Notes: generated by a model from the letters alone, not told the origin. A stretch of 64,000 bases of DNA from an uncultured Planctomycetia bacterium (GCA_964634935.1 CAZWJT010000001.1:95480-159479), one strand, 5' to 3'; shown: positions 10,439 to 38,612, numbered from the stretch's first letter. Program-made: numbers and translations.

Positions 10439-11359
10439 TTATGAGAAGTAGGAACGGGCGCTCAGAATATCTTTTAAAATACTTTTTTTAAGAATCGCTC
10501 TACTCCTAAATCTGCGTTCTGGACGCAGCCGCTTAAGAAAATATACTTCAACTTTTTGACGATAGATATTTTTATGAAAACGAAAAATAAAAACTTCGAG
10601 CTTTTTTTGTTTATGAGCTGGTTTAATTGTAGGAGCATATCCAAGGCTCGCGACACCACGATACATTTTGTTTTTGTGCTTTACCATAACGACAAAAACA
10701 CCAGGTAAAGGGGTTACCTGACGCCCACAGGCAAGATTGACCGTAGGAACAAACATCTTTTTCCCAAGATGACGACCACGTAGAACACGCCCTGAAATCA
10801 TATATGGCCTTCCTAAAATATTTCTTACTGCATCGAATTGAGAGCCTTCTATCAAAGAACGAATCCGAGAGCTGGCAATTATTGTACCGTTTATTTTTTC
10901 TTTTTCAACGACACTCAGGGAAAAACCGAACGTGCTGGAAGCTTTCTGTAAATCTCGAATCCCCATCTGACGCGCATACCCGAAATGACAGTCTGGACCA
11001 ACGACAACTTTTTGGATATTGAAGTACCGATACAAATAGCGTAAAAAAGAAAATCCACTCTTGAGATATAGCTGCCGAGTAAACTTTATAATCCATACAT
11101 AATCAATGGGAAATTTTTTGAGCAGTAAAAGTTTCTCCTGATCACTGGTGAGCACTCCGGAAAACTTCCGTTGGAACACTTGGTCGGGATGAGGCGAAAA
11201 AGTAACCACGAGTGTTTTAAGATTGTCTTTCGATGCCTGCTTACAGAGTTGCCGCAAAAGAACTCGATGCCCACGATGCACGCCATCAAAAATACCGACA
11301 GTAACTGCAACCTTAGGACGGGAAGTAAAATGCGGGGTCTTGAATATACTTTTCATCAA
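10439..11359 (-). CDS. ribF: bifunctional riboflavin kinase / FMN adenylyltransferase RibF
   Basis: N-terminal nucleotidyltransferase motif VGIFDGVHRGH and a C-terminal riboflavin-kinase domain. Conserved truB-ribF linkage. Confidence 0.85.
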   Translation of the reverse strand: MMKSIFKTPHFTSRPKVAVTVGIFDGVHRGHRVLLRQLCKQASKDNLKTLVVTFSPHPDQVFQRKFSGVLTSDQEKLLLLKKFPIDYVWIIKFTRQLYLKSGFSFLRYLYRYFNIQKVVVGPDCHFGYARQMGIRDLQKASSTFGFSLSVVEKEKINGTIIASSRIRSLIEGSQFDAVRNILGRPYMISGRVLRGRHLGKKMFVPTVNLACGRQVTPLPGVFVVMVKHKNKMYRGVASLGYAPTIKPAHKQKKLEVFIFRFHKNIYRQKVEVYFLKRLRPERRFRSRAILKKSILKDILSARSYFS

Positions 11360-13441: not shown

Positions 13442-14536
13442 TTAAGTTTTTTTCTGGATAGATAGGAGTGACTTTCGCATAATGCGCTTTTCCCGCTGCC
13501 CAACCACTAACCAGTAAAGTATTACTTGTTCTTCGGGAGAAAATTCCTTAAGAAAAGTAAGGACGCGATGCTCCTGGGGAATTTTCTCCAGCTCTTGAGC
13601 CTGCTTGTGCAAAAAAGAAGCTTTGGATATTCTCTTCCAGTAATGCCGAGGTAGTTCTAAAAAATCACAGAACTCCTTTGGATTCATCGACCCAAATACA
13701 GCAAAGCCAAGAAAGTAAAAGAGAGTCGTATCGAATTCATTCCCGCTCCGCAATACAGCAAAACAACGAAGAGCTGAATTAATTGTATCGACTTGATTTG
13801 CGGTTAGTGAAAGGTAATTTTCCAAAAATTTAAATCCGGTAAATTGAAACAAACAGCGCACGGCATCATAGGGATTTTCCTCCTGGAACATGCGTTCAAG
13901 CTCATTTGCAATCCTTTTCCCACTGACCCGTTGAATGCTATTTTCTTTACAGGCATGCTTCATTGCAAGAGCGGTAGCGCCGGAAAGATGAAATTTAAAA
14001 CGCACCAAGAATCGAATTGCTCGAAAGATGCGTGTTGGATCGTCAATGAAACTCCGGGGATGAAAGATACGCAATACTTTGCGCTTTAAATCCCGCAACC
14101 CGCCAAACAAATCAATTACTTCAAGATAGCTCTCTGAAGAAAGGTCGAGTGCAAGCGCATTTACCGTAAAATCTCTCCGGAATAAATCGTCGCGTAAAGA
14201 CCCAGAAGAAACCTGAGGAAGGCTTCCTGAGTGTAAATACATTTCTTTCCGTGCAGTTGCAATATCAACTTGATAATCGGAGGAAAAAATTGTTGCCGTG
14301 CCGAAACGAGGATAGTCCACCAACCGCCCAGAAACTTTTTCTGCAAGTCTCCGGGAAAAAAGTATGCCGTCTCCTTCAACGACCAGATCGATATCTAAAT
14401 TTTCCCGATGAAGAAGCATATCCCGCACACACCCTCCCACAAGATATACGTTCATATCAAGGTCCTGCGCTACAGACATCGCTGCCCCTGCGATAACCTG
14501 AGTCATGCACGGTAGGCGTTTGTTTGTTATTCTCAT
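13442..14536 (-). CDS. cca: CCA-adding tRNA nucleotidyltransferase / poly(A) polymerase family (PcnB/Cca head domain)
   Basis: N-terminal polymerase-beta-like motifs (LVGGCVRDMLL, DIDLVVEGDG) and RxxxR…ERxxxE-like downstream motifs. 364 aa. Confidence 0.75.
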   Translation of the reverse strand: MRITNKRLPCMTQVIAGAAMSVAQDLDMNVYLVGGCVRDMLLHRENLDIDLVVEGDGILFSRRLAEKVSGRLVDYPRFGTATIFSSDYQVDIATARKEMYLHSGSLPQVSSGSLRDDLFRRDFTVNALALDLSSESYLEVIDLFGGLRDLKRKVLRIFHPRSFIDDPTRIFRAIRFLVRFKFHLSGATALAMKHACKENSIQRVSGKRIANELERMFQEENPYDAVRCLFQFTGFKFLENYLSLTANQVDTINSALRCFAVLRSGNEFDTTLFYFLGFAVFGSMNPKEFCDFLELPRHYWKRISKASFLHKQAQELEKIPQEHRVLTFLKEFSPEEQVILYWLVVGQREKRIMRKSLLSIQKKT

Positions 14537-15423
14537 TGAGCGCGCGGGTGAAATTTAGTATGAATGGTTTTTAACCGATTCCTATCCACATGGGTATAAA
14601 TCTGGGTCGTAGAGATGCTTGCATGACCCAAAAGTTCTTGAACACTCCGTAAATCAGCGCCACCCTCAAGTAAATGTGTGGCAAAAGAATGCCTGAAAGT
14701 ATGCGGGGTGACCTCTTTGGTAATTCTGGCAAGCTTTACAGCAACTTTAATCATCTTCCAGATACTTTGCCGGCTTAAACGTTTCTTATACTGAGAAACA
14801 AAAAGAAATTCATTAGAAACCCCTTTCAAGATGCTGGCTCTCACCTCTTTCATATAACGCTCAACAAAATGTTCTGCGGATTTTCCAAGCGGAACAATGC
14901 GCTCTTTTGAACCCTTACCACGGCAACGCAAAAAACCTACCGTAAAATCAATATCCTGAAGTTTCAAAAAAGCAACCTCTGAAATCCGCAATCCGGTCGC
15001 ATACATCAACTCGAGAATTGCCCGATCCCGTAAGCCATTGCGAGTGCGAATATTCGGTTGAACAATAATTTTCTCGATCTCATCAACCGTTAACGTATCC
15101 GGAATCCGCTTCCAAAGCTTTGGAGAATCAAGCAATACTGTTGGATCTTTCGAAATAATGTTTTCCCGAACTAAAAATTTATGGAACGATTTAATTCCGG
15201 AAAGCCGGCGGGACACCGATGAAGCCTGTATTCCCTGACTACGTTCTGCAAATAAAAAATCCTGGATATCTTTTTTTTCGACAGACGTCGGAACCGTGAT
15301 GTTCCGTTTTTTTAAAAACTGTGAATATTTCTGTAAATCGAAGGCATACGCCGCCAGGGTATTCCCCGAAAGTCCACGTTCGACCCGTAAATAATCGAGA
15401 AATGAATCGATATATTCTTGCAT
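14533..15423 (-). CDS. xerD: tyrosine site-specific recombinase XerC/XerD family
   Basis: N-terminal SAM-like domain (…YLRVERGLSGNTLAAY…). C-terminal catalytic box HTFRHSFATHLLEGGADLRSVQELLGHASISTTQIYTHV carries the R…HxxR…Y signature. Confidence 0.85.
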   Translation of the reverse strand: MQEYIDSFLDYLRVERGLSGNTLAAYAFDLQKYSQFLKKRNITVPTSVEKKDIQDFLFAERSQGIQASSVSRRLSGIKSFHKFLVRENIISKDPTVLLDSPKLWKRIPDTLTVDEIEKIIVQPNIRTRNGLRDRAILELMYATGLRISEVAFLKLQDIDFTVGFLRCRGKGSKERIVPLGKSAEHFVERYMKEVRASILKGVSNEFLFVSQYKKRLSRQSIWKMIKVAVKLARITKEVTPHTFRHSFATHLLEGGADLRSVQELLGHASISTTQIYTHVDRNRLKTIHTKFHPRAQ

Positions 15424-19278: not shown

Positions 19279-20676
19279 TTATTTGTTTCGCAAAAGATCT
19301 TCAAAAAGTTTTACTGATCCTGAATCAGCAGGAAGTGTTTCTTTCATCTTTTCCAAACACCGCGAAGCTTCAGAAATATTTTCACTGAAAAAAGCACACC
19401 GTCCGTATACAAAATAAAGATTGTTCAAAGTCCGCTCTAAGGTTTTTGCATACACCTCATCTGAATAACTCAAATACCGCTTATATAAATTCGCAAACTT
19501 AGCTACTCCTCCTGCTGATTCCATAAGCTGTATGCCTTCAGAAGCCATTCGGCTTGCCGATATAAAAGCTTCATCTGGACTTCTTTTGTGGACCGATGCA
19601 TCATGTACTTGACGCATGAAATCGGTGGCGTAATACGATAAAAAACTAACACAAAACAGATATCTTTCAAAACACCGTCGTTCTTCGAGATTGCGACAAC
19701 TATCAGATATTCTGCGTAAAGAATTATATTGGTCTTGAGAAGATTGCATCGATACTACATCCCAAAAAGCAAGGTCCTCATCCTGTTTTGCATAAAAATC
19801 CTGTAACCCCAAATCTTGTCTTGATTGGAGCAACACCCGGACATCCCTTGCACTTACTGCAAAATTCATATTTTGGACTGCAACCCGCTCATTACCAAGG
19901 AGCGTTTGAGTAACTACTCCTACGACTAAACCTCTCATATCAAACAAGGGACCGCCGCTGTTTCCTGAAGAAATCGGACAGGTAAATTGGAGTAAATTAC
20001 GAATCATCCCGCTTTGTTTTCCCGAAAATATTCCGTCAGAAATTGAATATTCATAACCCATGGGATTTCCTATAACAAATGCTTTTTCTCCGGGTTCGAC
20101 AACGCTATCGTCCTCTAGCTGAAGAAACGGGAGATTATCAGATGAATCTATTTTTAGAATACACAAATCTTTTAGCAGGCTATAAGATACAATACGCGTG
20201 GGAACATACTCCTGCCCATTCTTCATCTTAACCATAATATCTCTTGCTCCAGCAACAACATGGTAGTTGGTCACAATAAGTCCAGTTTTGTCTATGAAGA
20301 AGCCTGAGCCAGTCATCGGTCCATCGGAAGTCGTAGCCTGAATAAACACAACTGCCGGAGAACTCTCTTTAAAAATCTGGGCTGCGGTTTTTTCTCCAAT
20401 GCTTGATGTACTCCTGCTTGAAGAAAAATCTATGGTTGTCTTAGGCAGAGCATTAAACTCAGCTATCTCATCGCGGTAGTAGGTAACAGAAATTCCTTGG
20501 ATATTTATCTTAATATATTCTTCGGTTTGTTCGATAATTTTTCCTTCAATTCGCCTGCCGGATTTAAGTATAAGGGTATCGGCAAATGCCGCAAAACAAC
20601 AACATAAAAAGAACACACTGCTTACAATACTCACTCCATTGCAAGGTATGCGTTTTAATTGAGAAAAACTGATCAT
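19279..20676 (-). CDS. trypsin-like serine protease (S1C/DegP-like catalytic domain, no PDZ) with N-terminal signal anchor and C-terminal helical domain
   Basis: Catalytic triad context: TNYHVV (His), LKDLCILKI (Asp), GNSGGPLF (Ser). The roughly 170-aa C-terminal region has no PDZ-like GLGI pattern. Start trimmed to the internal Met before the hydrophobic anchor. Confidence 0.7.
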   Translation of the reverse strand: MISFSQLKRIPCNGVSIVSSVFFLCCCFAAFADTLILKSGRRIEGKIIEQTEEYIKINIQGISVTYYRDEIAEFNALPKTTIDFSSSRSTSSIGEKTAAQIFKESSPAVVFIQATTSDGPMTGSGFFIDKTGLIVTNYHVVAGARDIMVKMKNGQEYVPTRIVSYSLLKDLCILKIDSSDNLPFLQLEDDSVVEPGEKAFVIGNPMGYEYSISDGIFSGKQSGMIRNLLQFTCPISSGNSGGPLFDMRGLVVGVVTQTLLGNERVAVQNMNFAVSARDVRVLLQSRQDLGLQDFYAKQDEDLAFWDVVSMQSSQDQYNSLRRISDSCRNLEERRCFERYLFCVSFLSYYATDFMRQVHDASVHKRSPDEAFISASRMASEGIQLMESAGGVAKFANLYKRYLSYSDEVYAKTLERTLNNLYFVYGRCAFFSENISEASRCLEKMKETLPADSGSVKLFEDLLRNK

Positions 20677-20692
20677 AAAATTTGTCCGTACA

Positions 20693-21346
20693 TTATCTGG
20701 TTTTTTTGATTTCTTTCTGATACTCAAAATAAGAATACGCGATGACAGAAAATCCAACCAACAGCAAGGGAATAGTTATGAAAAATAAAGCATAATCAGG
20801 GAAAAACAACCCCACAAGCATTCCTGCCCCCGCCTTCTTAAATAACCGCGCTCCAAGCTTATGGGTTTTCTCCCAAACTACATCACTCTGCAATGTCCAA
20901 GGCGTTCTAATGCCGGCGATTGCGTTACGTTGTATCTCGGCACAAAAATTACCCATGAGAAACGAAAACAATGAAAACCAAGCGCACACTATTAACCCTA
21001 TGTGCATAAAAAATCCTTTATTGCTCAAAAGTACGAACAGATGCATGCTCAAAAAGAAAAGCAGAAATAATACTGTAAAATTATCGTAATGTTTCTGGTA
21101 GAGCGCAAGTCCAAACCGAATGCGTTTTATCCGCGGCAGGATAAGAAATATAAACACCTGAATAAACATAAAAATGGGCATGAAAAATAAACCAAAGGAT
21201 TTGTTGACATATCCGTCTATTTCTCCTCTGATATTCCAGTGAGAAGCAACACAGTCAGGCAACTGAGGATAGAGATAGAAACTGGCCAGCAACGAGCCAA
21301 CGGCCATTACAAGAAGAATACTTTCGCTTTTGCGTAGTTTCATCAT
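20693..21346 (-). CDS. SdpI/YhfL-family membrane protein with DUF1648-like N-terminal segment
   Basis: Four to six TM helices, an HWNIRGEIDGY motif (DUF1648-like), and IRTPWTLQSDVVWEKTHK typical of the SdpI immunity-protein family. Confidence 0.55.
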   Translation of the reverse strand: MMKLRKSESILLVMAVGSLLASFYLYPQLPDCVASHWNIRGEIDGYVNKSFGLFFMPIFMFIQVFIFLILPRIKRIRFGLALYQKHYDNFTVLFLLFFLSMHLFVLLSNKGFFMHIGLIVCAWFSLFSFLMGNFCAEIQRNAIAGIRTPWTLQSDVVWEKTHKLGARLFKKAGAGMLVGLFFPDYALFFITIPLLLVGFSVIAYSYFEYQKEIKKTR

Positions 21347-21671: not shown

Positions 21672-21890
21672 TTAACGCCGCTTCTTTTTTTTCCGTTCTT
21701 TACCCAACCAAAGAATCGCAAGTACCAAAAGATGTACGGGATAAAACAATAGAACAATAAGAGCAAAAACCTTATTCACTGAAACTGGCAAAATCTTGTA
21801 AAAGAAAAAACTAAGCAGAAGACTACCCAAAAAGATACCTGCCTCCCGCGCAATTTCTTGCTGAACTCTTCTGCTTCCTCTAGTTTTCAT
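21672..21890 (-). CDS. hypothetical small two-helix membrane protein with a poly-Lys/Arg C-terminal tail
   Basis: 72 aa with two hydrophobic helices, ending …KERKKKKRR. Its start overlaps the stop of the upstream HExxH membrane protein by 4 nt, suggesting translational coupling. Confidence 0.35.
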   Translation of the reverse strand: MKTRGSRRVQQEIAREAGIFLGSLLLSFFFYKILPVSVNKVFALIVLLFYPVHLLVLAILWLGKERKKKKRR

Positions 21891-22465
21891 TCCATATTCC
21901 TGGGTGATACTGCCATTTTATAGAGCACCCAACTACCCGCGATAAGACAAATAAGCATTGAAATACCAGCAAGCATGCGGAACAACAAAGAAAGTGTCCG
22001 ATCGTAGTTTAACAAGTGCATTGCTCCAAGCAAATAATTCCAATCGTGAACCACAAGAGTGCCGAATGGACTTACCAAGGGTAACTCCATTGCCCGAGCA
22101 TCTCCGACATACAGAGCAATGTAGAAAAAATTGGTTGAAAGCCAGCCAAAGCATAGAATGAGCGAGAACCAATCTTTCTGCCGAAAGAAATTAACCATTC
22201 CGAAGATTGGAGCAACGCATTGAGTAAAAGTCCCTCCCAAAACGTTCAGAAACATCCCACAATACATGAAAATAAGATGACCTAATTCGTGAATACCGAG
22301 ATTCAACGGACCAAGGACACTATTGTAAAAAGGATCAAGAAGATGCCGAACAAAAGTATACCCAAAAAAAACTAAGAATGGAAGACGCGCGATCCAATTC
22401 CTGCCTTGGCACCACGCTTCCATCTCGGCTTTTAGTACAGAAAAAAAATGCAACATTGTTTTCAT
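21887..22465 (-). CDS. polytopic membrane protein with intramembrane HExxH motif (putative zinc metalloprotease-like)
   Basis: 192 aa, about five TM segments, with HELGH embedded in a hydrophobic helix (PLNLGIHELGHLIFMYCG). No second M50 motif was identified, so the family call is uncertain. Confidence 0.4.
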   Translation of the reverse strand: MKTMLHFFSVLKAEMEAWCQGRNWIARLPFLVFFGYTFVRHLLDPFYNSVLGPLNLGIHELGHLIFMYCGMFLNVLGGTFTQCVAPIFGMVNFFRQKDWFSLILCFGWLSTNFFYIALYVGDARAMELPLVSPFGTLVVHDWNYLLGAMHLLNYDRTLSLLFRMLAGISMLICLIAGSWVLYKMAVSPRNME

Positions 22466-22526
22466 TATAAACCAAAAACCGACGAATAGAAATCATATTT
22501 GTCCGGACAGGAAAAAAAGAAAAGAA

Positions 22527-22970
22527 TTAAAATGCTGGATCATCTGACGTCTTTTTGGGGTTCACAGGAATCCAGTCCGCATTCAGCTGCACGGTTTTGG
22601 CATCGATAATATGATAGGTTCCAAACTGATATTGTATATCTTTCTTTACTTTTTTACTTTCGGAATCATGAGAAAAAACACATTCATTCCCTCCTTCGGT
22701 CTTCCAGAATCGGAATGTACCATCGGTTAGGAATTCATAATATTCTCCTTGCGTGCAAAAAAAACAAGGATAGCTCTGTGTGCACTTTTCCGGATTTTGC
22801 CAGATCCCTATGACCCAATTCGTTCGATGCTGTTTCTGCCCCTGTAATATACCATTCAAAAGCTTGCCGTCAGAAGAAACTTCCCATTGGGTAACTTTGG
22901 CAAAGCAAATCTGCATACCAAACAACCAAAAAAGAAAAAAGGCGCATTGTCTAGGTATTCTGGAATTCAT
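22527..22970 (-). CDS. hypothetical secreted Cys-containing protein
   Basis: N-terminal signal peptide (…FLFWLFGMQICFA), 147 aa, several Cys and Trp. No recognisable family. Confidence 0.35.
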   Translation of the reverse strand: MNSRIPRQCAFFLFWLFGMQICFAKVTQWEVSSDGKLLNGILQGQKQHRTNWVIGIWQNPEKCTQSYPCFFCTQGEYYEFLTDGTFRFWKTEGGNECVFSHDSESKKVKKDIQYQFGTYHIIDAKTVQLNADWIPVNPKKTSDDPAF

Positions 22971-23328
22971 GTCTCCTCCAAAAACTATAATATGTCAGTA
23001 TATACCAAAGTATACCTAGTACTATCTGGTATATACAGCGACTTGGAATAAAAAATAGGTAAATAGCATGATAGAAAGCACCATGCCATACGCAGGAAGA
23101 AAAACATACTTGATGTAGGACTCCTTGCAATACAATTCGGGTTTACGGATTTGCCAAAGAAACCCGTGCTTCCGTAGAAGGGTTATGGGATTTTGGAAGA
23201 CAGAAAAATCCTTTTTCCTAAAAAAAACCATGCAGAAAAGGTGCGCGAAGAAATTCGCCAGAAAAATGAGAAATATGCCAGAAAAAATTGTTTCGATTCT
23301 CATGTATACACTTGTGCAGAAAAACATC

Positions 23329-23710
23329 TGGTGGAGGTGCGGGGAATTGAACCCCGGTCCTTAAGTAAAATACTTAAAGTCCCTACGCGTGTAGCTTTCC
23401 TTTTAGCTTACTTAAGCCACCCCGGAAAGCAGGGTTGAACTTAAGGCAGCCTTTAAAATTTTTCCCTACCTTCAAAGGCTAACCAGGTAAAGATGAGCCT
23501 GTGCTTTAACCCCCTATGCCTTCCAGGCAAAAGACACAAGGAGCCCTACTAGTTTACTAAACAGGTAGGAGTTAACCCCATAGGAGCTACAAAAGGAGTA
23601 GCCCCAGTAAACATTGGAGTTGCGTTTAGATTTTCGCAGCTGTTTTGCCAGTGGCTGCGGCTGGACGCGCAACCTTAAGCTTTTTGCTTAAGTCGAATCC
23701 GATCACCCCC
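23329..23710 (-). ncRNA. ssrA: tmRNA (ssrA), about 382 nt
   Basis: The reverse complement starts GGGGGTGATCGGATTCGAC… and ends …GGACCGGGGTTCAATTCCCCGCACCTCCACCA (tRNA-like domain with T-arm and CCA). A candidate resume codon GCA sits 5 nt after an upstream UAA, as in the conserved UAGUC-GCA arrangement, and the open frame ends in tandem TAG TAG. Confidence 0.85.
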
Positions 23711-23801
23711 GAATTATAAAAGAGCAATTCTAGTGCAAATATACCATAGAATAATAAAAATATCAATTCCTTGAAGACACCGTCAGGCAGAAAAGAAAAG
23801 A

Positions 23802-24170
23802 TTACTGTTTGGCAAGAATATCTTTAATCGTTGCGACAAGCGCAGCAGCATCAAAAGGCTTTGAAAGATATGCGTCAACTCCCAACTTCAAGACTTTTTC
23901 TTTGTATTCAGGATTTTGCATTCCGGTAAGCACAACGATCGGGATAAATCGCGTTTGGTTAGAAAGCCTAAGGTTCTCTAAAACACCAAGTCCACCACCG
24001 CAAGGAAGCATAAGATCAAGAATAATAAGATTCGGTTTTTCTTTGTGGGTAGACTCAACACCCAAACAAGCATCTGTCGCGATAACGACTTCAAACCCCT
24101 CCGCGGTAAGACGCTTGGAAATAATCTTCCCGATATCAGGATCATCTTCAATAATCAATATTTTATTCAT
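23802..24170 (-). CDS. single-domain response regulator (CheY-like receiver)
   Basis: 122 aa: IIEDDPDIG…, phospho-acceptor region IILDLMLP, and conserved T/K (VVLTG…YLSKP). Confidence 0.8.
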   Translation of the reverse strand: MNKILIIEDDPDIGKIISKRLTAEGFEVVIATDACLGVESTHKEKPNLIILDLMLPCGGGLGVLENLRLSNQTRFIPIVVLTGMQNPEYKEKVLKLGVDAYLSKPFDAAALVATIKDILAKQ

Positions 24171-24236
24171 TGCTCCTACTGCATTTTACTGTTTTATGTT
24201 TATTGTAGCATAAAAAATAAGTAAAAAAATATTTTT

Positions 24237-25364
24237 CTAACGCTTTCTTAAATCAAGCGGCAGAATCACAGTAAACGTTGACCCTTTTGAAACTTTACTT
24301 TCAACAAAAATCTCACCGCAATGCAATTTTACAATATTGTAGCTGATCCATAAACCGAGCCCGGAGCCTTCTCCCTGGGAAGGAATGCTCTGAAACTGGT
24401 TAAAAAGCTTGGTTATAAACTCTTCGCTAATACCACAGCCTGTATCCCGAACAATGATCTTGAGAAAAGCATTGTAGGAAGTATAGGAGACTTCTACCTC
24501 TCCGCCTGCAGGGGTAAACTTAAAGGCATTACCGAGAAGATTGAGCAAAACCTGGATAATCTTTTCCTGGTCACACCAAATTTCGATTATTTCAGAGGAA
24601 GCGTTGGTCCGAAAATGGATATTTTTCCGCTCAGCCAGAGGACAGGATTCCTCGAGTACCCGCGCGAATAGCTCGGAAAAATTTACCTTTTCTCGCTTCA
24701 AAGTCATCATGCCTGATTCAATCTTTGCAATATCCAAAAGACTATTGATGAGCGCGGTTAACCGAGTAATGACGCCAAGCATAGAAGTAAGCACTTCTTT
24801 CTGCTGGGGTAAAACAGCCCCCTCAAGTTCATCGCGTAAGTTTTCTGTGTAACCTTTGATTACAGTCAGAGGGGTGCGAAATTCATGGGCGACCGTGTTT
24901 ACAAACTCAGTCTTTGCCTGACTAATCCGACTCAATTCTTTGTTTTCGCCGACTATTTTCTGCCAGAGAATGCGGTTATCTTTGATCAACTGCGCTCGCT
25001 CTACGGCGCCTTTCAATGCGAGTGTAAGAAGCTCCAAATGACCCATATCCGGTTCTTTGATCAAATAATCAAAAGCCCCTTGCTTAATGGCCTCAACAGC
25101 AATCTTTTCGCTCCCTTGACCAGTGAGGATAATTGCCGGGAGTTCCTCCGGGCGGATCTTCTGATAAATTTGACCCATCACATCAAGCCCAACCGCATCA
25201 GTAAGGAAATAATCAAGAAGCATAGCGTCATAGGTCTCTGCCCATGCTTTCTCCAGGGCTTCTTGGCCTGAAGAAGCGACAATAACTTGAATATTTTCTG
25301 ACTCCAGCCTTTGCTTTACAAGGTACTGCTGGCCTGGATCATCTTCAACCAACAAAACTTTCAT
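24237..25364 (-). CDS. hybrid response-regulator / histidine kinase (REC-HisKA-HATPase_c)
   Basis: N-terminal REC (LLVEDDPGQQ…MLLDYFL…ILTGQ), H-box VAHEFRTPLTVIKGY, N-box NLLGNAFKFT, G-boxes DTGCGI / GSGLGL. Confidence 0.8.
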   Translation of the reverse strand: MKVLLVEDDPGQQYLVKQRLESENIQVIVASSGQEALEKAWAETYDAMLLDYFLTDAVGLDVMGQIYQKIRPEELPAIILTGQGSEKIAVEAIKQGAFDYLIKEPDMGHLELLTLALKGAVERAQLIKDNRILWQKIVGENKELSRISQAKTEFVNTVAHEFRTPLTVIKGYTENLRDELEGAVLPQQKEVLTSMLGVITRLTALINSLLDIAKIESGMMTLKREKVNFSELFARVLEESCPLAERKNIHFRTNASSEIIEIWCDQEKIIQVLLNLLGNAFKFTPAGGEVEVSYTSYNAFLKIIVRDTGCGISEEFITKLFNQFQSIPSQGEGSGLGLWISYNIVKLHCGEIFVESKVSKGSTFTVILPLDLRKR

Positions 25365-25378
25365 AAATTGCTCCTTGT

Positions 25379-27547
25379 TTATAAATTCAATTTCTTAGGT
25401 ATGGTAAAGTAAAATTTTGTCCCGCTGTCCGGCTCTGATTCAACCCAAATATTCCCACCCTGGGAAGTAACGATCTTTTTTACGATTGTAAGCCCCATGC
25501 CCATCCCTGCTGCAACCTGAGGTTCGAGGCGTTGAAACACTTGAAAGATACGATGAAAATTTTTGGGGTGAATTCCCTTGCCGTTATCTTTTACAAAAAA
25601 CTTGTATTCAGAAAAAAGCTCTTCGCAGCCAACTTCGATTATTCCCCCTGTTGGTTTATCCATATACTTTATGGCATTATCAATAAGATTGGTAAAAATT
25701 TCATTCACCCTTACTTCATCGCCGACGATACTGGGTAACGGATGAATAACCAATTGCAACTTTTTTTCTTGAAGTGCATGCGACAAGAACTTACTGATAC
25801 TTGTGAGGTTTTGGTTTAAATCTATCTTATTTTCAGCACGAGGCTCCGTGGTCACCCGCGAAAGCTTCAGGAGACTCTGCACCAAAAGGCTTATTTTCTT
25901 AATACCTTCATCAATAAAAGAAAAATATTCCGATGGTGTCTTCCCAGCAGTCTCCCCTATAGTACCCAAAGTTTCTTTTATTTTATCGCTAAAACCCTTA
26001 ATATTCATAATCGGAGCCTTCAGATCGTGCGAGACGATATAGGTAAAATTTTCCATCTCTTGGTTTACGTCTTCCAGTTTTTTGTTCAAAATCTCCATCT
26101 CGCGAGCGCGCTTCTCAAAGCGGAGGTCTCGAGCTATTAAAACCATTTCTTGCCGTTCGTTCTCGGTGCTCGTTATTTTTTTACCGTTTACGTTCACCGG
26201 GATATATTCTTTTTGCTTTGAAAGAAAAAATAAATCCTTGTCGACAAAGCAATCCTGCCGAAAAAGACCTTCGAGTTCTTTTTTATCTTCATCAAGAGAT
26301 AAAGAATTTCGGATATTGAGAAAGGAGAAAACCGACTGCCCCACCACTTCTATATTCTCATAGCCTAAAAGACGGAGAAAAGCTCCGTTCACAATCCGAA
26401 CAGTAAAGTCTTTGTCAAAAACCAGCAAGGCTTCAAGCATGTTTTCGATAATACCTTTGAGTGATTCGTTTGACTGACGGAGGTTTTTTTCCGAATAGGA
26501 CAGCTCCATTGCCATTCGATTAAAGTTCTGGGCAAGCTCTCCGATCTCATCCCGAGTTCCGATCTCAACCGCTTCAGGAACTTCTCCTTTTGCGAGCGCC
26601 TTGGTTTCTTCAGAAAGAATTCGTAAGGGTATGGAGATACGACGGGAAAAAATAATACCAATGGAAGCCGCGGCAATCGAAAGAAAAATGAGCACAACAA
26701 CGATAAGGGTTAAAGCATTCTTTTCCGCCTGGATAATACTATCAATGGGAATGCTGATAACGCACGCCCCCTGAGCACGCCCATCCTCATCTTTCAAGGG
26801 CACAACTTTTGATTCAAGTAAAAAACCTCCTTCGAGATCAACTCGAACATTCTTAATCTCATCCTCAACCTTCTGACCCTGGTATACATACGATGCTTCA
26901 CCAAGATACGGCACGCGATTACCCTGACTATCAGCGATGCTCGTCGCAACCATCTTTTTGTGAAAAACAAAACTTATGTCTACGCCGGATATCGATTTGA
27001 TATAGTCGGCAATCACGTGGTCAATGACTTTTTCTAAAACCAATTTTTCAAAAAGCGGCGCCTGTTCTACAGAAAGACTGATTTCCTCGCGTAAATACAA
27101 AGAAGATCCCGCGGCAAAGATATCAATCTTTTGATTGTTTTTGTCCGCCGGCAACAACAGGGCAAGCTTTTGTTCATCTTTTTTTATCCCATAGAGGGTT
27201 TCCCTCTGGGGTCCGTAAAAACTTCCGTCTTTGGCAATAAAATAAATTTTTGTGAGCGCTAATTCAGTTTTCTTCAGCGCAAGAATTTGTTCCAGAAAAT
27301 CTGTTTTCGCTGTCCGCAAATATAAAACAATGTCCGGATCTTTCAGTAGTGACTCACCTTGCGTACGAATCGTCTGGCGGTAGTCAACAAGCGTATTCAA
27401 GGCAACCCTCGAGGCAAAAACAGCCTTATCATCAAGAATGCCAAACATCGTTCTACTCACAGTCTTAAGGGTGATCAACCCAACAAAAAATGGTGGAATA
27501 AGCGCAATGCCAGCTAAAAGAATCGGCAGCTTATGGCGTATTCTCAT
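25379..27547 (-). CDS. transmembrane sensor histidine kinase (periplasmic sensor-HAMP-PAS-HisKA-HATPase_c)
   Basis: Two TM helices flank a roughly 260-aa extracytoplasmic domain. A HAMP-like linker, a PAS-like segment (IIENMLEALLVFDKDFTV…), H-box SHDLKAPIMNIKGF, N-box NLIDNAIKY and G-boxes DNGKGI / GMGLTIVK follow. Confidence 0.8.
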   Translation of the reverse strand: MRIRHKLPILLAGIALIPPFFVGLITLKTVSRTMFGILDDKAVFASRVALNTLVDYRQTIRTQGESLLKDPDIVLYLRTAKTDFLEQILALKKTELALTKIYFIAKDGSFYGPQRETLYGIKKDEQKLALLLPADKNNQKIDIFAAGSSLYLREEISLSVEQAPLFEKLVLEKVIDHVIADYIKSISGVDISFVFHKKMVATSIADSQGNRVPYLGEASYVYQGQKVEDEIKNVRVDLEGGFLLESKVVPLKDEDGRAQGACVISIPIDSIIQAEKNALTLIVVVLIFLSIAAASIGIIFSRRISIPLRILSEETKALAKGEVPEAVEIGTRDEIGELAQNFNRMAMELSYSEKNLRQSNESLKGIIENMLEALLVFDKDFTVRIVNGAFLRLLGYENIEVVGQSVFSFLNIRNSLSLDEDKKELEGLFRQDCFVDKDLFFLSKQKEYIPVNVNGKKITSTENERQEMVLIARDLRFEKRAREMEILNKKLEDVNQEMENFTYIVSHDLKAPIMNIKGFSDKIKETLGTIGETAGKTPSEYFSFIDEGIKKISLLVQSLLKLSRVTTEPRAENKIDLNQNLTSISKFLSHALQEKKLQLVIHPLPSIVGDEVRVNEIFTNLIDNAIKYMDKPTGGIIEVGCEELFSEYKFFVKDNGKGIHPKNFHRIFQVFQRLEPQVAAGMGMGLTIVKKIVTSQGGNIWVESEPDSGTKFYFTIPKKLNL

Positions 27548-28742
27548 CAGTAATCTTCCGAGCTAATGAATCCACGTCTTGAAAAATTTTCATGGCGTTC
27601 TTCTTTTCCTGTTCAAAAGCACCCTGGATTTCCTTACCGATATATTCCCATGACTGCTGATAACCTTCTTTTTGGACATAAGCCGCAAGGATCTTCTGAA
27701 TTACCGAAAGAAAATATCCGGCACTCTGCCAATCTGTCCATCGTAAAGAACGCTTGATAAAATAAAGATTCTGGGCCAAAAAGAATGATTCGCCTGCTTT
27801 TTCACCAGAAAGCCTGACCCCCTCTTGAATTACGTACTCCTGGAGCGGATTAAAAAAATCTCGCCGGTTTTTCACGAATGCGTCCTGAGAACCCGAAGCT
27901 AAAACAAAAACTTTTTTTAAAAAATCTCTTTCTTCCCCGCCAATCTCACCAGACTCAGCCCCGTTTTGAGCAAAATCGGTAATTCGCTTCAGAATACGCA
28001 ACGTATATTCTCGGTCTTTTCTCTGGACGCTTGCGCCGAGCGCGTTAAGCTTCTCAAGCAAAAACTCCACTGAAAGAAACCGTCCCCTCTGGTCTTGTTT
28101 CTCCGAGGCGTATTCCTGAAGGAAAAAAACCAATTGATCAATCTTGCGGTTAAAACGCTCCATATCGGCAGTATCAATGAGCGATTCAAAACTTACCGCT
28201 TGGAGAGTATCTTTTATCTGATCAACCATCTTTTTCTCGGAAACACCTAACTGCGCAGAAGAAAACAACGCAAGAATATCAAGCAGCTTATTGACTCGAA
28301 AAGTACAAAGAACATAATCCTTCTCAAGCACCAGTGAATCAATCACAGCCAACTGACGAAGCACATAGAGAACGATCTTTTCTTGGGAATGCTTTTTCCC
28401 AAAAGCTATATGGAGTAGAGCTGACTGAAAATCCTGAGTATTAGAAAAAAGAAGCGGCTTATCTGCGGCAAGGGCAAGGTTATTCTCAAGATTTGCGAAA
28501 TGATAATTTAATCGGCGAAGTTCTTCTCCGCTAAAATCCGCATTTCTTTCCTTGAAACGGGAAAATTCTTCTTCAAAAATTTCAAGCAAAGGAGGAATAG
28601 TACGAAAAGAGCCATGTGCAACATCAGCTTCAACATCCGCAAGAATAAAAGAAAGAGTGCAATTACCGGAACTGATATCATCAGCAAACAACAAAGCTGG
28701 GAATAAAAACACCAGAAACAAGCACAATGCTTTCTTCCTCAT
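27531..28742 (-). CDS. hypothetical secreted/periplasmic all-helical protein, first gene of the sensor-kinase operon
   Basis: Signal peptide MRKKALCLFLVFLFPALLFADD. About 400 aa rich in Leu/Glu/Lys with no recognisable family. Start placed at the Met preceding the signal peptide, which abuts the smpB stop. Confidence 0.4.
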   Translation of the reverse strand: MRKKALCLFLVFLFPALLFADDISSGNCTLSFILADVEADVAHGSFRTIPPLLEIFEEEFSRFKERNADFSGEELRRLNYHFANLENNLALAADKPLLFSNTQDFQSALLHIAFGKKHSQEKIVLYVLRQLAVIDSLVLEKDYVLCTFRVNKLLDILALFSSAQLGVSEKKMVDQIKDTLQAVSFESLIDTADMERFNRKIDQLVFFLQEYASEKQDQRGRFLSVEFLLEKLNALGASVQRKDREYTLRILKRITDFAQNGAESGEIGGEERDFLKKVFVLASGSQDAFVKNRRDFFNPLQEYVIQEGVRLSGEKAGESFFLAQNLYFIKRSLRWTDWQSAGYFLSVIQKILAAYVQKEGYQQSWEYIGKEIQGAFEQEKKNAMKIFQDVDSLARKITDENTP

Positions 28743-28746: not shown

Positions 28747-29199
28747 CTACCGGTTGAACCTCCGTAACGTTCTTTGCACATAGCGTTTTTCATCCCGTTC
28801 TTTAATGGCCTTGCGTTTATCATATATCCGCCGGCCTTTTCCAAGGCCAATTTCGAGCTTCGCCAGGCCCTTTTCAGTAAAGTATACCTTAAGCGGAACG
28901 AGAGTAAATCCTTTTTGTGAAACAAGGCCCCATAAGCGATGGATTTCTTTCTTATGAAGAAGCAATTTTCGCTCCCGATATGGATCTTCCTTGAAATAAG
29001 AAGTTTTGTCGAACTCGGAAATATGCATATTGGAAACCCTGATCTCGCCATTCCGTAAATACGCATAACTGTCTTGGATATTGACTCTCCCTAAGCGCAA
29101 CGATTTCACCTCGCTTCCTTTCAATTCAATCCCGGCTTCGAAAGTTTCAAGAATTTCGTAGTTTAAGTACGCCTTCTTATTTGTGCTTATAATCTTCAT
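28747..29199 (-). CDS. smpB: SsrA-binding protein SmpB
   Basis: NKKAYLNYEILETFEAGIELKGSEVKSLR… and a C-terminal basic tail typical of SmpB. Start set at MKIIS…. Confidence 0.85.
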   Translation of the reverse strand: MKIISTNKKAYLNYEILETFEAGIELKGSEVKSLRLGRVNIQDSYAYLRNGEIRVSNMHISEFDKTSYFKEDPYRERKLLLHKKEIHRLWGLVSQKGFTLVPLKVYFTEKGLAKLEIGLGKGRRIYDKRKAIKERDEKRYVQRTLRRFNR

Positions 29200-30152
29200 A
29201 AGCCGGCTGAAAGATAAAAAATCTTGATCCAAACCGGAAGGGTCAAAATACTCCCCAAATGGCTGAAAAGCAAATTTTGTGCAATAAACTCAGCATCAAG
29301 ATTTTTCCAGCGAGCAATCACGGTTAAGGATACCGCTGAGGGTACTGCCGCCTGGATGATGAGAAATAACCCAAATATGTCTTGAATACGCAGCACAAGA
29401 AGCACAAAAAAGAAAACAAGAGGAACAACAACAAGCTTTCCAAACGAAACAATACATAACCCGATGAAACGATCAAAAGTAATACCCCGTAAGGCAGAAC
29501 GGGAAAGTTCATATCCTAGCAGAATCATAGAAAGAACAAAACTGACACTTCCGATCGCAGAGAAACAATCTAATACTGTGGCGGGGATAAATCGGTTCAA
29601 TCCCACGAGAACAAAAAGAAGCGATATCACGGTAGCCTGCGTTGGAAGATTGAAAAAATCTTTGAATTCCAGCTTTGTTTTGGAATTTTTAAAGAAAAAA
29701 TGTGGACTCACTGACCAAAAAATAAAATTAAAACCAATAAGATAAATAAAAATATACACCAGAAACATATCCCGAAGACTCTCCGGAAACATAAAATGTG
29801 CAAGCACCATCGGTAAATACCCGCAATTCTGGAAAGCAAGCAGCGAAACTGTTTCTCGAGGAGGAAACCTCTTGGAAAACAAATAAACAAATAAAAATCC
29901 TAACGCTCCCCCCACGATACAGATAAGAAAACTCCAAGCAATAATAAGAAACCAATGGGGCCGCAAAGCGAACGAAAAATTCCGGGAAAGTTCAGAAATA
30001 ATCAATGCGGGGATACAAACATTAATCAGGACATCGGTAAGAAATTGTGCCCTGGTTTCATCAAGAAACTTCTTATGCTGAAGGAAAAAACCAAACCCCG
30101 CCAAAAGCACAAGCTGAAAAACTACCCCAAAAAGAAAGTTCATACTTCCCAT
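29196..30152 (-). CDS. AEC-family (auxin efflux carrier / Mem_trans) permease
   Basis: 318 aa, about 10 TM helices in two inverted halves. N-terminus FGVVFQLVLLAGFGFFL…LINVCIPALI is typical of AEC/malate-permease-like transporters. Confidence 0.55.
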   Translation of the reverse strand: MGSMNFLFGVVFQLVLLAGFGFFLQHKKFLDETRAQFLTDVLINVCIPALIISELSRNFSFALRPHWFLIIAWSFLICIVGGALGFLFVYLFSKRFPPRETVSLLAFQNCGYLPMVLAHFMFPESLRDMFLVYIFIYLIGFNFIFWSVSPHFFFKNSKTKLEFKDFFNLPTQATVISLLFVLVGLNRFIPATVLDCFSAIGSVSFVLSMILLGYELSRSALRGITFDRFIGLCIVSFGKLVVVPLVFFFVLLVLRIQDIFGLFLIIQAAVPSAVSLTVIARWKNLDAEFIAQNLLFSHLGSILTLPVWIKIFYLSAGL

Positions 30153-30237
30153 ATGAGAATTATAACAGAGAATTTTTTGCTTTCAAATGTGGTCTCCTTG
30201 CAAAAAAGATAGCCTTAGATGAAGCAATCCGCCTGGT

Positions 30238-36647: not shown

Positions 36648-38612
36648 TCATTCCAACGACTGCCTCAGCTGTCGCTCAGCGTCTACTTCATCTCGATTCA
36701 TTCGGAGAAAACATTCCCGGGCTTTCCCGTGGATTGCCGAAGAAAACCCGGGAAAAGACATAAATTCTCTGGCTAATTGCAAAACCATGCGAAAATAGCG
36801 TATTAATTCTCCTTCATCGATATCGGTAATCTTCTCCAGTTGGGCAAACGCAATCCCTTCAAACCAAAGCCTCACAGGCTCCGCTAGGTGGTATGCAAAT
36901 TGCTTACTTGCGGGATAAATCCGGAAATTTTTCTCCCGCCGAAAAATCAATTCATCGATCGCCTGGGTTGCCTCAAAGACCCTACGCACACTGTGGGAAA
37001 GACGCGGTTTTTCCTGACCTCGTCTTGGTTCATACACAAGCGCAGAAAATAAAATAGCAAGTTGCAGCGAAGAAATCGCTTCAAAGAATCCCCGTTCATA
37101 GAGTTCCCCCAGCGGAAGTTCATAGCTATAGAGATGCGAAGCAAGCTCTCCCTTAAAGCTTAATCTCTTTGTCTCAGTAATATACCCCAATTCTTTCAGA
37201 AGCGTGATTTTCCTCCGGGTAAGTTCAACCGCTTTTTGTTTTTCTTTCTCGGAAGCAGAGAAAAAATGGAATGAAAGAGGATATATATCGTAAATCTTCT
37301 CACCCATATCTCGATAGAGATTAAGCAAAGTGGCATAATTACTTTTTAGTTGGCTTTCTATTTCTTCGGGGCGTCCATAAATAATCCGCTTTAAACCTTC
37401 CAGGGAAGCGCCGAGAGAGCTAACACGCAGATACACAAATCCATTATTATCGATGCCTCTCCGGCCAGCGCGGCCGGCAATCTGGTAAAAATCCCTAGTT
37501 TTCAAATAACGGTGGAACGTACCAGAAAATTTTTTGATATCATCAAAAACGACTGCCCGGGCTGGCATATTTATCCCTAAAGCAAATGTCTCTGTGGTGA
37601 AGATCGCTTTCAGCTTGCGAGAAGAAAAGAGCACTTCAATCACTTCTTTCAATGAAGGGAGAAGCCCGGCATGATGAAATGCAACTCCTCGTTGGATGAA
37701 CGGCTTTAAAAAACAAGCTCCGGCATGCGCTGAAAGGTCAAACCTGGAAAGAAGTTGACTATATAATTCTGATATCTCGACGCTCTCTTCAGCGGTAAGA
37801 AAGTTAAAATGCCCTGCCACCTCTTCAGCTAGCATCTCAGTTTTTTTCCGAGAAAAAGAAAAATAAATGCAGGGAAGATGATTTTTCTTTTGAAGCATCT
37901 CGAAAAGCGCATAAATTTTATTCGGCCGCGTGCCTTGAAGACGATTTGAATGCCTCCTCTGAAATAATTTCTTTTCTGAACTAACCAAAATATTCTCCCG
38001 CTCCAGCGCTTTGACATGGTTAAAAATGCGGTTGTTGCATTGGAAAAAAATACTGAGCGGCACCGGACGGGTGTATTCAATGATAGTTTTTATGGGAAAA
38101 TGGTGTATTGAACTCATCCAGGAGGAAATCTCCCGAACGTTGGGTACGGTTGCGCTCAACGCGATAATTTTCATATGTTTAGGCAGCAGCATCAAAGCTT
38201 CCTCCCACACGGTTCCACGCTCAACATCATCAAGATAATGTATTTCATCGAAAATAATCCACTCTTTGTTGCGAAGACGCTCGGGATCAGACAGGATGAC
38301 ATTACGAAAGATCTCCGTTGTCATAATGACCAGGAGCGCATCCGGATTTAAACTGACATCTCCGGTCAGAATACCAACCCGATCGCCATACGTTAAAGAA
38401 AAATCCCTGAATTTTTGGTTACTCAATGCTTTGATCGGAGCAGTATAAACAATGCCTTTTTGATTCTGAAGAGACCGGGTAATTACATATTCAGCAATAA
38501 GAGTTTTTCCCGCTCCAGTAGGAGCGGAAACAACGACAGACGAACCAGATTCTATACTGGCAATCGCCTCTTGCTGAAATCGGTCAAGCGGGAACGGATA
38601 GTGCAATTCCAT
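36648..38612 (-). CDS. Ski2-like DExH-box superfamily-2 RNA/DNA helicase
   Basis: Motif I SAPTGAGKT, motif II DEIHYL (DExH), helicase C-domain motifs (HHAGLLP, QIAGRAGRRG), and a roughly 250-aa C-terminal helical domain. Confidence 0.7.
   Translation of the reverse strand: MELHYPFPLDRFQQEAIASIESGSSVVVSAPTGAGKTLIAEYVITRSLQNQKGIVYTAPIKALSNQKFRDFSLTYGDRVGILTGDVSLNPDALLVIMTTEIFRNVILSDPERLRNKEWIIFDEIHYLDDVERGTVWEEALMLLPKHMKIIALSATVPNVREISSWMSSIHHFPIKTIIEYTRPVPLSIFFQCNNRIFNHVKALERENILVSSEKKLFQRRHSNRLQGTRPNKIYALFEMLQKKNHLPCIYFSFSRKKTEMLAEEVAGHFNFLTAEESVEISELYSQLLSRFDLSAHAGACFLKPFIQRGVAFHHAGLLPSLKEVIEVLFSSRKLKAIFTTETFALGINMPARAVVFDDIKKFSGTFHRYLKTRDFYQIAGRAGRRGIDNNGFVYLRVSSLGASLEGLKRIIYGRPEEIESQLKSNYATLLNLYRDMGEKIYDIYPLSFHFFSASEKEKQKAVELTRRKITLLKELGYITETKRLSFKGELASHLYSYELPLGELYERGFFEAISSLQLAILFSALVYEPRRGQEKPRLSHSVRRVFEATQAIDELIFRREKNFRIYPASKQFAYHLAEPVRLWFEGIAFAQLEKITDIDEGELIRYFRMVLQLAREFMSFPGFSSAIHGKARECFLRMNRDEVDAERQLRQSLE

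Follow-up and report, generated by a model that had tools for sequence, protein, structure and literature searches.

A four-gene signalling module with a candidate periplasmic partner protein between smpB and the tmRNA gene

Four consecutive genes on the minus strand, at positions 23802-28742 of the window (the whole 64,000-nucleotide stretch of DNA that was analysed), encode a secreted protein called X, a transmembrane sensor histidine kinase (HK722), a receiver fused to a kinase core (RECHK375) and a bare receiver (REC122). It was found that this block lies between smpB and the tmRNA gene ssrA, and that X and its kinase recur as a pair in a second organism with an overlap of the same length. 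We read the module as an Lvr-type two-component cascade of three proteins, to which a periplasmic partner has been added, a reading held with about even confidence, and from it we infer a direction of phosphotransfer, a contact between X and HK722 and an output through protein-protein binding. Table 1 summarizes the features of the locus.

Table 1. Features of the locus, with positions counted along the window
Feature	Position	Strand	Description
X	27531-28742	(-)	403 aa, secreted; signal peptide MRKKALCLFLVFLFPALLFA, then DD; family not recognised; candidate periplasmic partner/co-sensor of HK722
HK722	25379-27547	(-)	722 aa transmembrane sensor histidine kinase: TM-sensor-TM-HAMP-PAS-HisKA-HATPase_c
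HK722 extracytoplasmic sensor domain	26738-27454	(-)	about 240 aa, orphan sequence
RECHK375	24237-25364	(-)	375 aa, REC-HisKA-HATPase_c
REC122	23802-24170	(-)	122 aa, single-domain response regulator
X stop/HK722 start overlap	27531-27547	(-)	17 nt, ATGAGAATACGCCATAA, coding in both frames
tmRNA (ssrA)	23329-23710	(-)	ARAGORN; Rfam RF00023, 162.8 bits, full length
smpB	28747-29199	(-)	150 aa from ATG at 29199; Pfam SmpB E 1e-56; tblastn matches begin at same Met
Mem_trans (AEC-family) permease	29196-30152	(-)	Pfam PF03547, E 1.5e-28; stop overlaps smpB start (ATGA)
Predicted sigma-70-type promoter, permease gene 5' side	30159-30186	(-)	TTGAAA-16-TATAAT, TG-extended, 11/12; consensus match only
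ssrA own promoter (predicted)	23738-23766	(-)	TTGATA-17-TATATT, TG-extended; between REC122 stop and tmRNA gene

Gene layout and the three signalling proteins

All four open reading frames proposed in a first-pass annotation of this DNA were recovered on the minus strand within the span and in the order given, and the domain architectures given there for the kinases and the receiver agree with Pfam. The genes are closely packed. Only 4 nt part the smpB stop from the X start, 14 nt the HK722 stop from the RECHK375 start and 66 nt RECHK375 from REC122. The three two-component genes are all 66 nt or less apart and so fall well inside the 200-bp limit used for calling two-component genes functionally linked (PMC3018481). 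The tmRNA gene, at which the module was said to end, does follow, 91 nt past the REC122 stop. That annotation missed smpB immediately upstream, which places the module between smpB and ssrA.

In HK722, hydropathy places two transmembrane segments (aa 6-31 and 270-304) on either side of an extracytoplasmic region (aa 32-270), and Pfam places HAMP at 300-349 (E 4.5e-12), PAS at 363-475 (E 4.8e-11), HisKA at 498-567 (E 1.3e-7) with the H-box residue His507, and HATPase_c at 609-719 (E 5.7e-24). RECHK375 carries Response_reg at 3-110 (E 5e-20), HisKA at 150-218 (E 2.8e-18, profile positions 1-66 of 66) and HATPase_c at 265-371 (E 6e-25, positions 2-110 of 111); these three domains and a putatively helical linker fill all 375 residues, with no other sensor domain. 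Its receiver has Glu7-Asp8-Asp9, Asp51, Thr81 and Lys103, and its DHp histidine is His160. REC122 is a single-domain response regulator, with Response_reg at 4-115 (E 3e-23) of its 122 residues and the pocket residues Asp52, Thr82 and Lys104. On inspection of the sequences, the phospho-sites of all three proteins are intact.

It had been claimed that the module lacks a DNA-binding or enzymatic output domain, and this stands: when the four proteins were searched against Pfam and NCBIfam, neither an Hpt domain nor an output domain, whether DNA-binding or enzymatic, came up, and no output-bearing response regulator is present among the 50 larger open reading frames of the window that were scanned. 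There is also no room for a lost output domain after REC122, because the tmRNA gene starts so close to its stop. On the other hand, the multistep phosphorelay suggested in the first-pass annotation does not hold in the defined sense, since no Hpt or Spo0B-like phosphotransferase is present (Hpt, PF01627, gave no match to the four proteins at E <= 0.01), and the protein carrying the second histidine is itself a full kinase that includes an ATP-binding domain. What would be expected instead is a kinase cascade in two tiers, or else a branched circuit resembling RedCDEF. REC122 was also considered as a chemotaxis CheY or a PilG/PilH protein, and this was rejected, as no CheA, CheW or MCP family was found among the 50 larger open reading frames.

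The secreted protein X and its kinase

The secretion proposed for X agrees with its hydropathy profile, in which a single hydrophobic segment lies at the N-terminus (aa 1-26). X has no Pfam match even at E <= 10 and no NCBIfam match; it has no significant PDB match either, the sole one at E <= 10, obtained with a two-sequence profile, having an E value of 0.14. It was a singleton in a search of 5.8 billion proteins, and an exhaustive search of 1.84 billion representative proteins detected one relative, P0124 (E 3e-8). As far as these searches reach, the X family is one of two known members. No internal repeats above shuffled background were found. Around smpB in 80 other genomes, X had no match, and the matches to the kinases showed only generic kinase-core or domain similarity.

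In ExoR-ExoS, CpxP-CpxA, TorT-TorS and LuxP-LuxQ, a secreted protein encoded beside or together with a sensor kinase is thought to act on the periplasmic domain of that kinase. X is like ExoR, CpxP, TorT and LuxP in being secreted and kinase-adjacent, but it matches none of their Pfam families at E values up to 10. Assignments of X to ExoR/Sel1, CpxP/LTXXQ or the periplasmic binding proteins were rejected for want of a family profile match in Pfam (E <= 10) or NCBIfam, and a motif search found the LTXXQ motif absent from X.

The relative P0124 likewise has a signal peptide, and in locus L081 its gene overlaps the start of an HK722-like kinase gene by 17 nt, the same length as in X and HK722. 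The first 71 residues of that kinase are 37% identical to HK722. When the two junctions were aligned over 81 nt, the overlap fell where conservation is highest (21 of 23 nt), a conservation kept despite the different GC contents of the two genomes (42% vs 29%). The P0124 genome also has a helicase orthologue 61% identical to the helicase in this window, and there the pair adjoins the helicase gene, not smpB. Since a second organism has the X gene followed by the kinase gene with an overlap of identical length, the idea that X is a candidate co-sensor or partner of HK722, already raised in the first-pass annotation, gains real support. The overlap itself implies translational coupling. The contigs of L081 and L082 stop 213 nt inside the kinase gene, and therefore the comparative support extends to the X-kinase pair only and not to the whole four-gene module; a metagenome scan with the conserved kinase N-terminus recovered the known contig alone.

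The sensor domain of HK722 is likewise an orphan in sequence. Its membrane-proximal half is weakly Cache-like (sCache_3_3, 17.9 bits, E 0.004, against a curated cut-off of 28.8). It has no PDB match and no homologue among 120 kinase matches, and a word-indexed search with the domain alone returned nothing, the parent protein included. Homology to dCache is not supported by hhalign, which gave a probability below 1% against the dCache_1 set. The description of X as "all-helical" has as its sole basis a single-sequence AlphaFold2 model of low confidence (pLDDT 39), and the corresponding model of the HK722 sensor is mixed alpha/beta (pLDDT 35); both models are too poor to be usable for testing a complex.

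Routes of phosphotransfer

By architecture, RECHK375 matches the Rec-controlled histidine kinases of the LvrB type, with a complete kinase core, and because of this architecture a cascade is most likely, not a His-Asp-His-Asp relay. Residues 4-369 align over the full length with residues 7-375 of the LvrB chain 8vc9_A (E 8.4e-15). Both proteins have the order Rec-linker-DHp-CA and similar lengths (375 aa vs 382 aa in LvrB), with Asp51 and His160 in RECHK375 against Asp56 and His161 in LvrB, so that the Asp-to-His distance is 109 residues in the former and 105 in the latter. The linker (aa 105-160) has no proline beyond Pro105, and 5-7 of 8 a/d positions per 28-residue window are hydrophobic, which is a crude heptad count only. 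The LvrB residue E150, called strictly conserved, sits 11 residues before His161 (PMC13269768); the residue 11 before His160 in RECHK375, found by offset and not by alignment, is Gln149.

In the Leptospira system, the co-operonic kinase LvrA activates LvrB by phosphorylating its N-terminal Rec, whereupon LvrB autophosphorylates and goes on to phosphorylate a regulator further down the pathway (PMC5863495, PMC13269768). Just as lvrB follows lvrA (PMC5863495), the RECHK375 gene comes next after that of a PAS-containing kinase within one operon. The differences are that LvrA is cytoplasmic and hybrid, whereas HK722 spans the membrane, exposes a large extracytoplasmic domain and lacks a receiver; that LvrC carries an output (anti-sigma, Bergerat-fold) domain, whereas REC122 is a bare receiver; and that a secreted protein is present here. 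Sequence identity is also low, and against the NCBIfam models LvrA and HrmK the scores come nowhere near the cut-offs.

In the proposed cascade, translational coupling would hold the ratio of X to HK722 constant. X would be exported to the periplasm and would bind or modulate the orphan extracytoplasmic domain, shaping what the kinase senses. HK722 would autophosphorylate at His507 and pass the phosphoryl group to Asp51 in the receiver of RECHK375. This would switch on the DHp-CA core, as in LvrB, with autophosphorylation at His160 and transfer to Asp52 of REC122. REC122, having no output domain, would then have to act by binding another protein, the target being encoded outside the window.

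The main competitor, which we consider somewhat unlikely, is a branched circuit like RedCDEF of Myxococcus xanthus. Here HK722 would phosphorylate both REC122 directly and the receiver of RECHK375, and the chief role of RECHK375 would be to remove phosphate from REC122~P, as a phosphatase or drain under the control of its receiver, setting the duration of the signal instead of relaying it. The RedCDEF "four-component" system likewise combines, at a single locus, the domain types T, R, T and R, lacks a DNA-binding output and ends in a single-domain regulator; its first kinase phosphorylates the single-domain regulator, and its second kinase-like protein dephosphorylates that regulator after phosphate arrives through the receiver (PMC2755868). 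In addition, the inactive symmetric state of LvrB is a proposed phosphatase form (PMC13269768). However, the RedD receiver and the kinase-like protein RedE are separate, while their counterparts are fused in RECHK375, and RedE has no autokinase activity, while both catalytic domains of RECHK375 look complete; the comparison covers the shared domains.

The relatives of the proteins also bear on this choice. Ranked over all relatives of HK722, a Cloacimonetes kinase comes second, and directly after it lies a single-domain REC that is slightly nearer to REC122 (31% identity) than to the RECHK375 receiver (26%), as the branched circuit would have it, but this gap is marginal. No X-like gene and no Rec-HK was seen around the two kinases most similar to HK722, for one of which the fetched locus ends just past the kinase gene. 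Against the branched circuit, the RECHK375 core finds its nearest match in HK853 (132 bits), whereas the HK722 core is closest to bacteriophytochrome kinase modules and scores 88 bits against HK853. The REC122 receiver is most similar to receivers of the OmpR/PhoB type and to RR468, the single-domain regulator that is cognate to HK853 (65 bits, vs 40 bits for the RECHK375 receiver), with its best NCBIfam and PDB matches all below curated cut-offs. REC122 and the RECHK375 core are nearer to the cognate pair of HK853 and RR468 than HK722 is, which hints at their pairing, although such hints are family-level similarities and not specificity predictions; a receiver identity matrix was not discriminating for pairing.

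It is distinctly unlikely, in our judgement, that two independent systems merely adjoin, with X and HK722 acting on a regulator elsewhere and RECHK375 and REC122 fed by another kinase or by acetyl phosphate, which also activates LvrB (PMC5863495). Only the X-HK722 pair has comparative support, and in the Omnitrophota locus L002 a Rec-HK gene is followed by REC genes with no sensor kinase among the ten open reading frames scanned around them, so cassettes of this kind seem to exist on their own. Nevertheless, no convincing promoter or terminator was found by a scan of the short HK722-RECHK375 gap, and the whole block appears as one insertion relative to the closest Omnitrophota relative (locus L001). 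Moreover, "TRTR" foci are recognised linked units, of which 262 were counted among 29,962 foci, every geometry occurring at least 12 times (Williams and Whitworth 2010, PMC3018481). With its three genes and four domains, the present locus counts as a T-RT-R focus; the survey is confined to counts and covers neither mechanism nor accessory proteins.

Insertion between smpB and ssrA, and significance

In the closest Omnitrophota relative, smpB directly abuts the ssrA promoter with no module between them: the aligned promoter block starts 2 nt past the smpB stop, and both ssrA promoter hexamers are identical. Therefore, as judged by this alignment, the module has been inserted, in a lineage-specific way, after the smpB stop and ahead of the ssrA promoter of a genome that is Omnitrophota-like. 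The permease-smpB adjacency is kept in four Omnitrophota loci (L002, L003, L004 and L042). A mobile-element origin was rejected, as the GC content is flat across the region at about 0.42 and flanking direct or inverted repeats do not exceed chance-level short matches; the sole integrase-family gene (14533-15423), with a XerC/D-type domain pair, is 8 kb distant. The first-pass annotation had also pointed to the pili as a possible output, and this link finds no support, given the distance and the intervening housekeeping genes, the PilT-like ATPase (53455-54516) being 25 kb off and the PilX_N protein (39765-40781) 11 kb off.

The module is probably co-transcribed with smpB, because the X start sits so close to the smpB stop, and the genes from the permease through smpB to REC122 probably form one transcription unit, likely starting at the predicted promoter on the permease side, where promoter-like sites are not above shuffled expectation in number across the region. 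The tmRNA gene has its own predicted promoter, and its adjacency to the module appears incidental. That the position is functional, with the module sensing envelope or translation stress and tuning trans-translation, for example through read-through transcription of ssrA or through contact of REC122 with SmpB or the ribosome, is highly improbable: smpB co-transcription would favour it, as would the lack of any terminator-like site in a scan of the stretch from the REC122 stop to ssrA, but the ssrA promoter is conserved with the module-less relative, the homologous pair adjoins a helicase gene, a tRNA/tmRNA scan found no tmRNA gene in the fetched loci L002, L004 and L042, and just a single genome shows the association.

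The cluster is real but fairly ordinary, as T-RT-R loci have long been catalogued and the mechanism of Rec-controlled kinases has been solved for LvrB, and as a signalling architecture the locus adds little. A more speculative reading, which we hold to be very doubtful, is that X and the orphan HK722 sensor make an undescribed two-protein periplasmic sensor restricted to a small Omnitrophota lineage of nanosized bacteria, in which a helical X would be the actual receptor for a ligand or envelope state and would feed a Rec-controlled kinase cascade with a bare-receiver endpoint; in a bolder version, smpB co-transcription would tie sensing to ribosome rescue. For the proposed cascade, the locus would be a natural case of a Rec-controlled kinase fed by a transmembrane sensor and ending in a single-domain regulator, and it could help to extend the Lvr model beyond pathogens. 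For a phylum that has been little studied, it also records how a block of genes can be inserted cleanly between smpB, just past its stop codon, and the promoter of ssrA, and its two-member secreted family, translationally coupled to a sensor kinase, is a concrete candidate for a new kinase accessory protein.

Gene layout and domain composition

The four signalling genes lie between smpB and the tmRNA gene ssrA. The stop codon of the permease gene overlaps the smpB start, X begins 4 nt after the smpB stop, and X shares 17 nt with the start of HK722. Further along, HK722 and RECHK375 are separated by 14 nt, RECHK375 and REC122 by 66 nt, and REC122 and the tmRNA gene by 91 nt.

Features of the module and its neighbourhood (window coordinates)
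Feature	Position	Strand
DUF1648/SdpI-family membrane protein and 492-aa trypsin-like protease	19279-21346	minus
Three small ORFs	21887-23327	minus
tmRNA gene	23329-23710	minus
Predicted ssrA promoter	23738-23766	
REC122, 122-aa receiver	23802-24170	minus
RECHK375, 375-aa receiver-kinase fusion	24237-25364	minus
HK722, 722-aa histidine kinase	25379-27547	minus
X, 403-aa ORF	27531-28742	minus
smpB	28747-29199	minus
Mem_trans permease	29196-30152	minus
Strongest promoter-like site	30159-30186	
DEAD-box helicase	36648-38612	minus
PilX_N-containing protein	39765-40781	plus
1074-aa ORF	40876-44100	minus

The four-gene cluster and every domain named in the first-pass annotation are borne out by Pfam; no NCBIfam model reached its cut-off for any of the four proteins. 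HK722 carries two membrane segments flanking about 240 extracytoplasmic residues, as seen from its hydropathy, and its cytoplasmic part would be aa 305-722. The phosphorylation sites are intact (His507 in HK722, Asp51 and His160 in RECHK375, Asp52 in REC122), and the receivers of both RECHK375 and REC122 have the acidic pair, Thr and Lys. The annotation had also stated that an output domain is absent, and this holds: Pfam and NCBIfam gave no Hpt, DNA-binding or enzymatic output domain in the four proteins. Also, no output-bearing response regulator was found among the 50 larger ORFs scanned in the window. The suggested output towards pili finds no support and was dropped, as the PilT-like ATPase is 25 kb and the PilX_N protein 11 kb away, with housekeeping genes between. 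The PilX_N-containing protein is adjoined, in divergent orientation, by the 1074-aa ORF, which has no Pfam family.

RECHK375 and the signalling circuit

The module had been described as a multistep phosphorelay. In the defined sense this label does not apply because no Hpt or Spo0B-like phosphotransferase is present in the module (Pfam), and the mechanism needs to be re-read as a Rec-controlled kinase cascade rather than a relay. RECHK375 is similar to LvrB of Leptospira (PDB 8vc9), with which it aligns end to end (query 4-369 versus chain 7-375). The Rec-controlled histidine kinases, or Rec-HKs, have LvrB as their prototype and are described as frequent (PMC13269768). The N-terminal receiver of LvrB is phosphorylated by the kinase LvrA, encoded just upstream, which increases the autokinase activity of LvrB (PMC5863495). 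According to the 2026 LvrB structures, receiver phosphorylation leads to a linker-helix coiled coil and frees the catalytic domains; LvrB in this state has the downstream regulator LvrC as its phosphorylation target (PMC13269768).

By analogy, His507 of HK722 would phosphorylate Asp51 of RECHK375, RECHK375 would then autophosphorylate at His160, and the phosphate would pass from His160 to Asp52 of REC122. This linear cascade is the best-supported model, to which we give an even chance. Some likenesses hint in the same direction, at the level of families and not as a prediction of specificity. HK853 is the closest match to the RECHK375 core (132 bits); the HK722 core reaches 88 bits with HK853, and its own closest matches are bacteriophytochrome kinase modules. 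RR468, the cognate single-domain partner of HK853, matches REC122 with 65 bits and the RECHK375 receiver with 40 bits.

The main rival takes RedCDEF as its example, where the first kinase phosphorylates a bare receiver directly, and dephosphorylation falls to a second kinase that is under the control of its receiver (PMC2755868). In a branched circuit of this kind HK722 would phosphorylate REC122 directly and the receiver-controlled RECHK375 would strip the phosphate; we consider this possible, at about half the likelihood of the linear cascade. That the genes form two independent systems side by side is less probable again. Finally, it is very improbable that the module is functionally tied to trans-translation, because ssrA is served by a conserved promoter of its own and a homologous X-kinase pair lies elsewhere in a related organism.

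The secreted protein X and the HK722 sensor domain

By hydropathy X has one hydrophobic segment, which is N-terminal; the mature protein would be aa 27-403. It has no Pfam match at E <= 10, no NCBIfam match, no LTXXQ motif, no internal repeats and no significant match in the PDB, where the only hit (E 0.14) came through a two-sequence profile. It was a singleton in a search of 5.8 billion proteins, and HMMER, run exhaustively on 1.84 billion representatives, gave one relative, P0124 (E 3e-8, 24% identity). P0124 is encoded on the short JGI contigs L081 and L082; the two contigs are Ga0116237_10049258 and Ga0116144_10019422, of samples 3300010356 and 3300009687. When its reading starts at an upstream ATG, P0124 has 393 aa and a signal peptide and aligns with X from end to end. 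This comparison answers the question of a misplaced start: the start codon of X is correct and the protein is secreted in both organisms. The earlier description of X as secreted and without a recognisable family in Pfam or NCBIfam stands, while "all-helical" comes only from a low-confidence structure model (pLDDT 39).

At its stop, P0124 shares 17 nt with the start of a kinase gene. Over the 71 residues that the contig preserves (MKIRYKLPIL...), this kinase has 37% identity to HK722, in the stretch of the N-terminus and the first membrane segment. In an 81-nt alignment of the two junctions, the 17-nt overlap falls within the best-conserved stretch (21/23 nt). This conservation, despite the different GC of the two genomes (42% for the window versus 29% for L081), fits coding in two frames. 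P0124 has as its neighbour on L081 a bacterial helicase of the DEAD-box type (1375-3354) that ends in a DSHCT (Ski2/Mtr4-type) domain. This helicase and its counterpart in the window share 61% identity, and therefore the L081 contig comes from a related organism. The X-kinase pair is at a different place there than in the window, and X diverges much faster than the helicase (23% versus 61% identity). A joint function of X and HK722 thereby has real, if thin, comparative support, and the proposal of X as a candidate co-sensor is strengthened by the pair in a second organism.

Like X, the extracytoplasmic sensor domain of HK722 is an orphan sequence, covered by none of 120 kinase homologues and without a match in the PDB. 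A sub-threshold sCache_3_3 match (E 0.004) falls in its membrane-proximal half; hhalign against a dCache set gave no support, and the quality of the structure model was too low for use. A Cache-like fold is plausible. With the N-terminal 300 aa of HK722 as query, a word-indexed protein search gave no match and missed even the full-length parent present in the database; negatives of this search on fragments are to be read with care.

Genomic setting and place among known loci

The closest SmpB relatives belong to Candidatus Omnitrophota MAGs (identity up to 63%). The window has the gene content of an ordinary chromosome (dcw cluster, dapAB, secA, prfB, uvrC and others) and a flat GC of about 0.42. 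Its 64 kb are co-oriented throughout: the minus strand carries 54 of the 58 ORFs of at least 150 aa, and GC skew stays negative across the whole window.

In L001, the nearest relative, the tmRNA gene follows smpB after about 100 nt, and then come tRNA-Ser(UGA), SNase, pyruvate kinase, SAM_HAT and PP-loop genes, the run from SNase to PP-loop being common to both. Since L001 passes from smpB to ssrA without the module and shares the downstream run, the four signalling genes are an addition in the lineage of the window. The predicted ssrA promoter (TTGATA-17-TATATT, TG-extended) is conserved in the ssrA upstream alignment with L001, where the aligned block starts 2 nt past the smpB stop. The insertion point of the module therefore lies after the smpB stop codon and before the ssrA promoter. 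As judged from this alignment, ssrA retained its own promoter after the insertion. No repeats, integrase or composition shift were found at the module as marks of the event. The module is probably transcribed together with permease and smpB, as judged from consensus scans only, since the strongest promoter-like site precedes the permease gene and no convincing terminator was found within the permease-to-module block.

For the tmRNA itself, ARAGORN gives the tag AATGKTAAKI, which ends in AAKI and is not of the usual Ala-Ala type, and proposes a very different 22-residue tag for L001 (4502-4873). The tag region is poorly conserved between the two; the remaining tmRNA and the promoter align well. 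On the 3' side of ssrA, the classical side for island integration, three family-less small ORFs (101 aa; 147 aa with a hydrophobic N-terminus; a hydrophobic 192 aa) extend towards tRNA-Ser, and none was matched in L001. The stretch from tRNA-Ser(UGA) to the SNase gene holds the DUF1648/SdpI protein and the protease. For these two, tblastn gave no match in the syntenic L001 region, so they look like another insertion specific to the lineage, close to the first.

The module belongs to the T-RT-R foci. In the survey by Williams and Whitworth, 262 of 29,962 foci were "TRTR", each geometry occurring at least 12 times (PMC3018481). L002, from another Omnitrophota MAG, has four genes in a row (7806-11355), about 5 kb downstream of smpB: one for a Rec-HK of 423 aa, two for single-domain receivers that share 56% identity, and one for a REC-GAF-HD-GYP protein. 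The output of this cassette is likely of the cyclic-di-GMP type. Therefore, Rec-HK cassettes occur in Omnitrophota, sometimes with this type of output. What sets the present locus apart is that its donor kinase spans the membrane and has an orphan sensor domain, that a secreted partner is coupled to this kinase, and that the endpoint is a bare receiver. The module is a genuine gene cluster, correctly described at first, that adds to a known type of multi-kinase two-component circuit, and it would gain in interest if X proved to be a periplasmic partner of a kind new for kinases.
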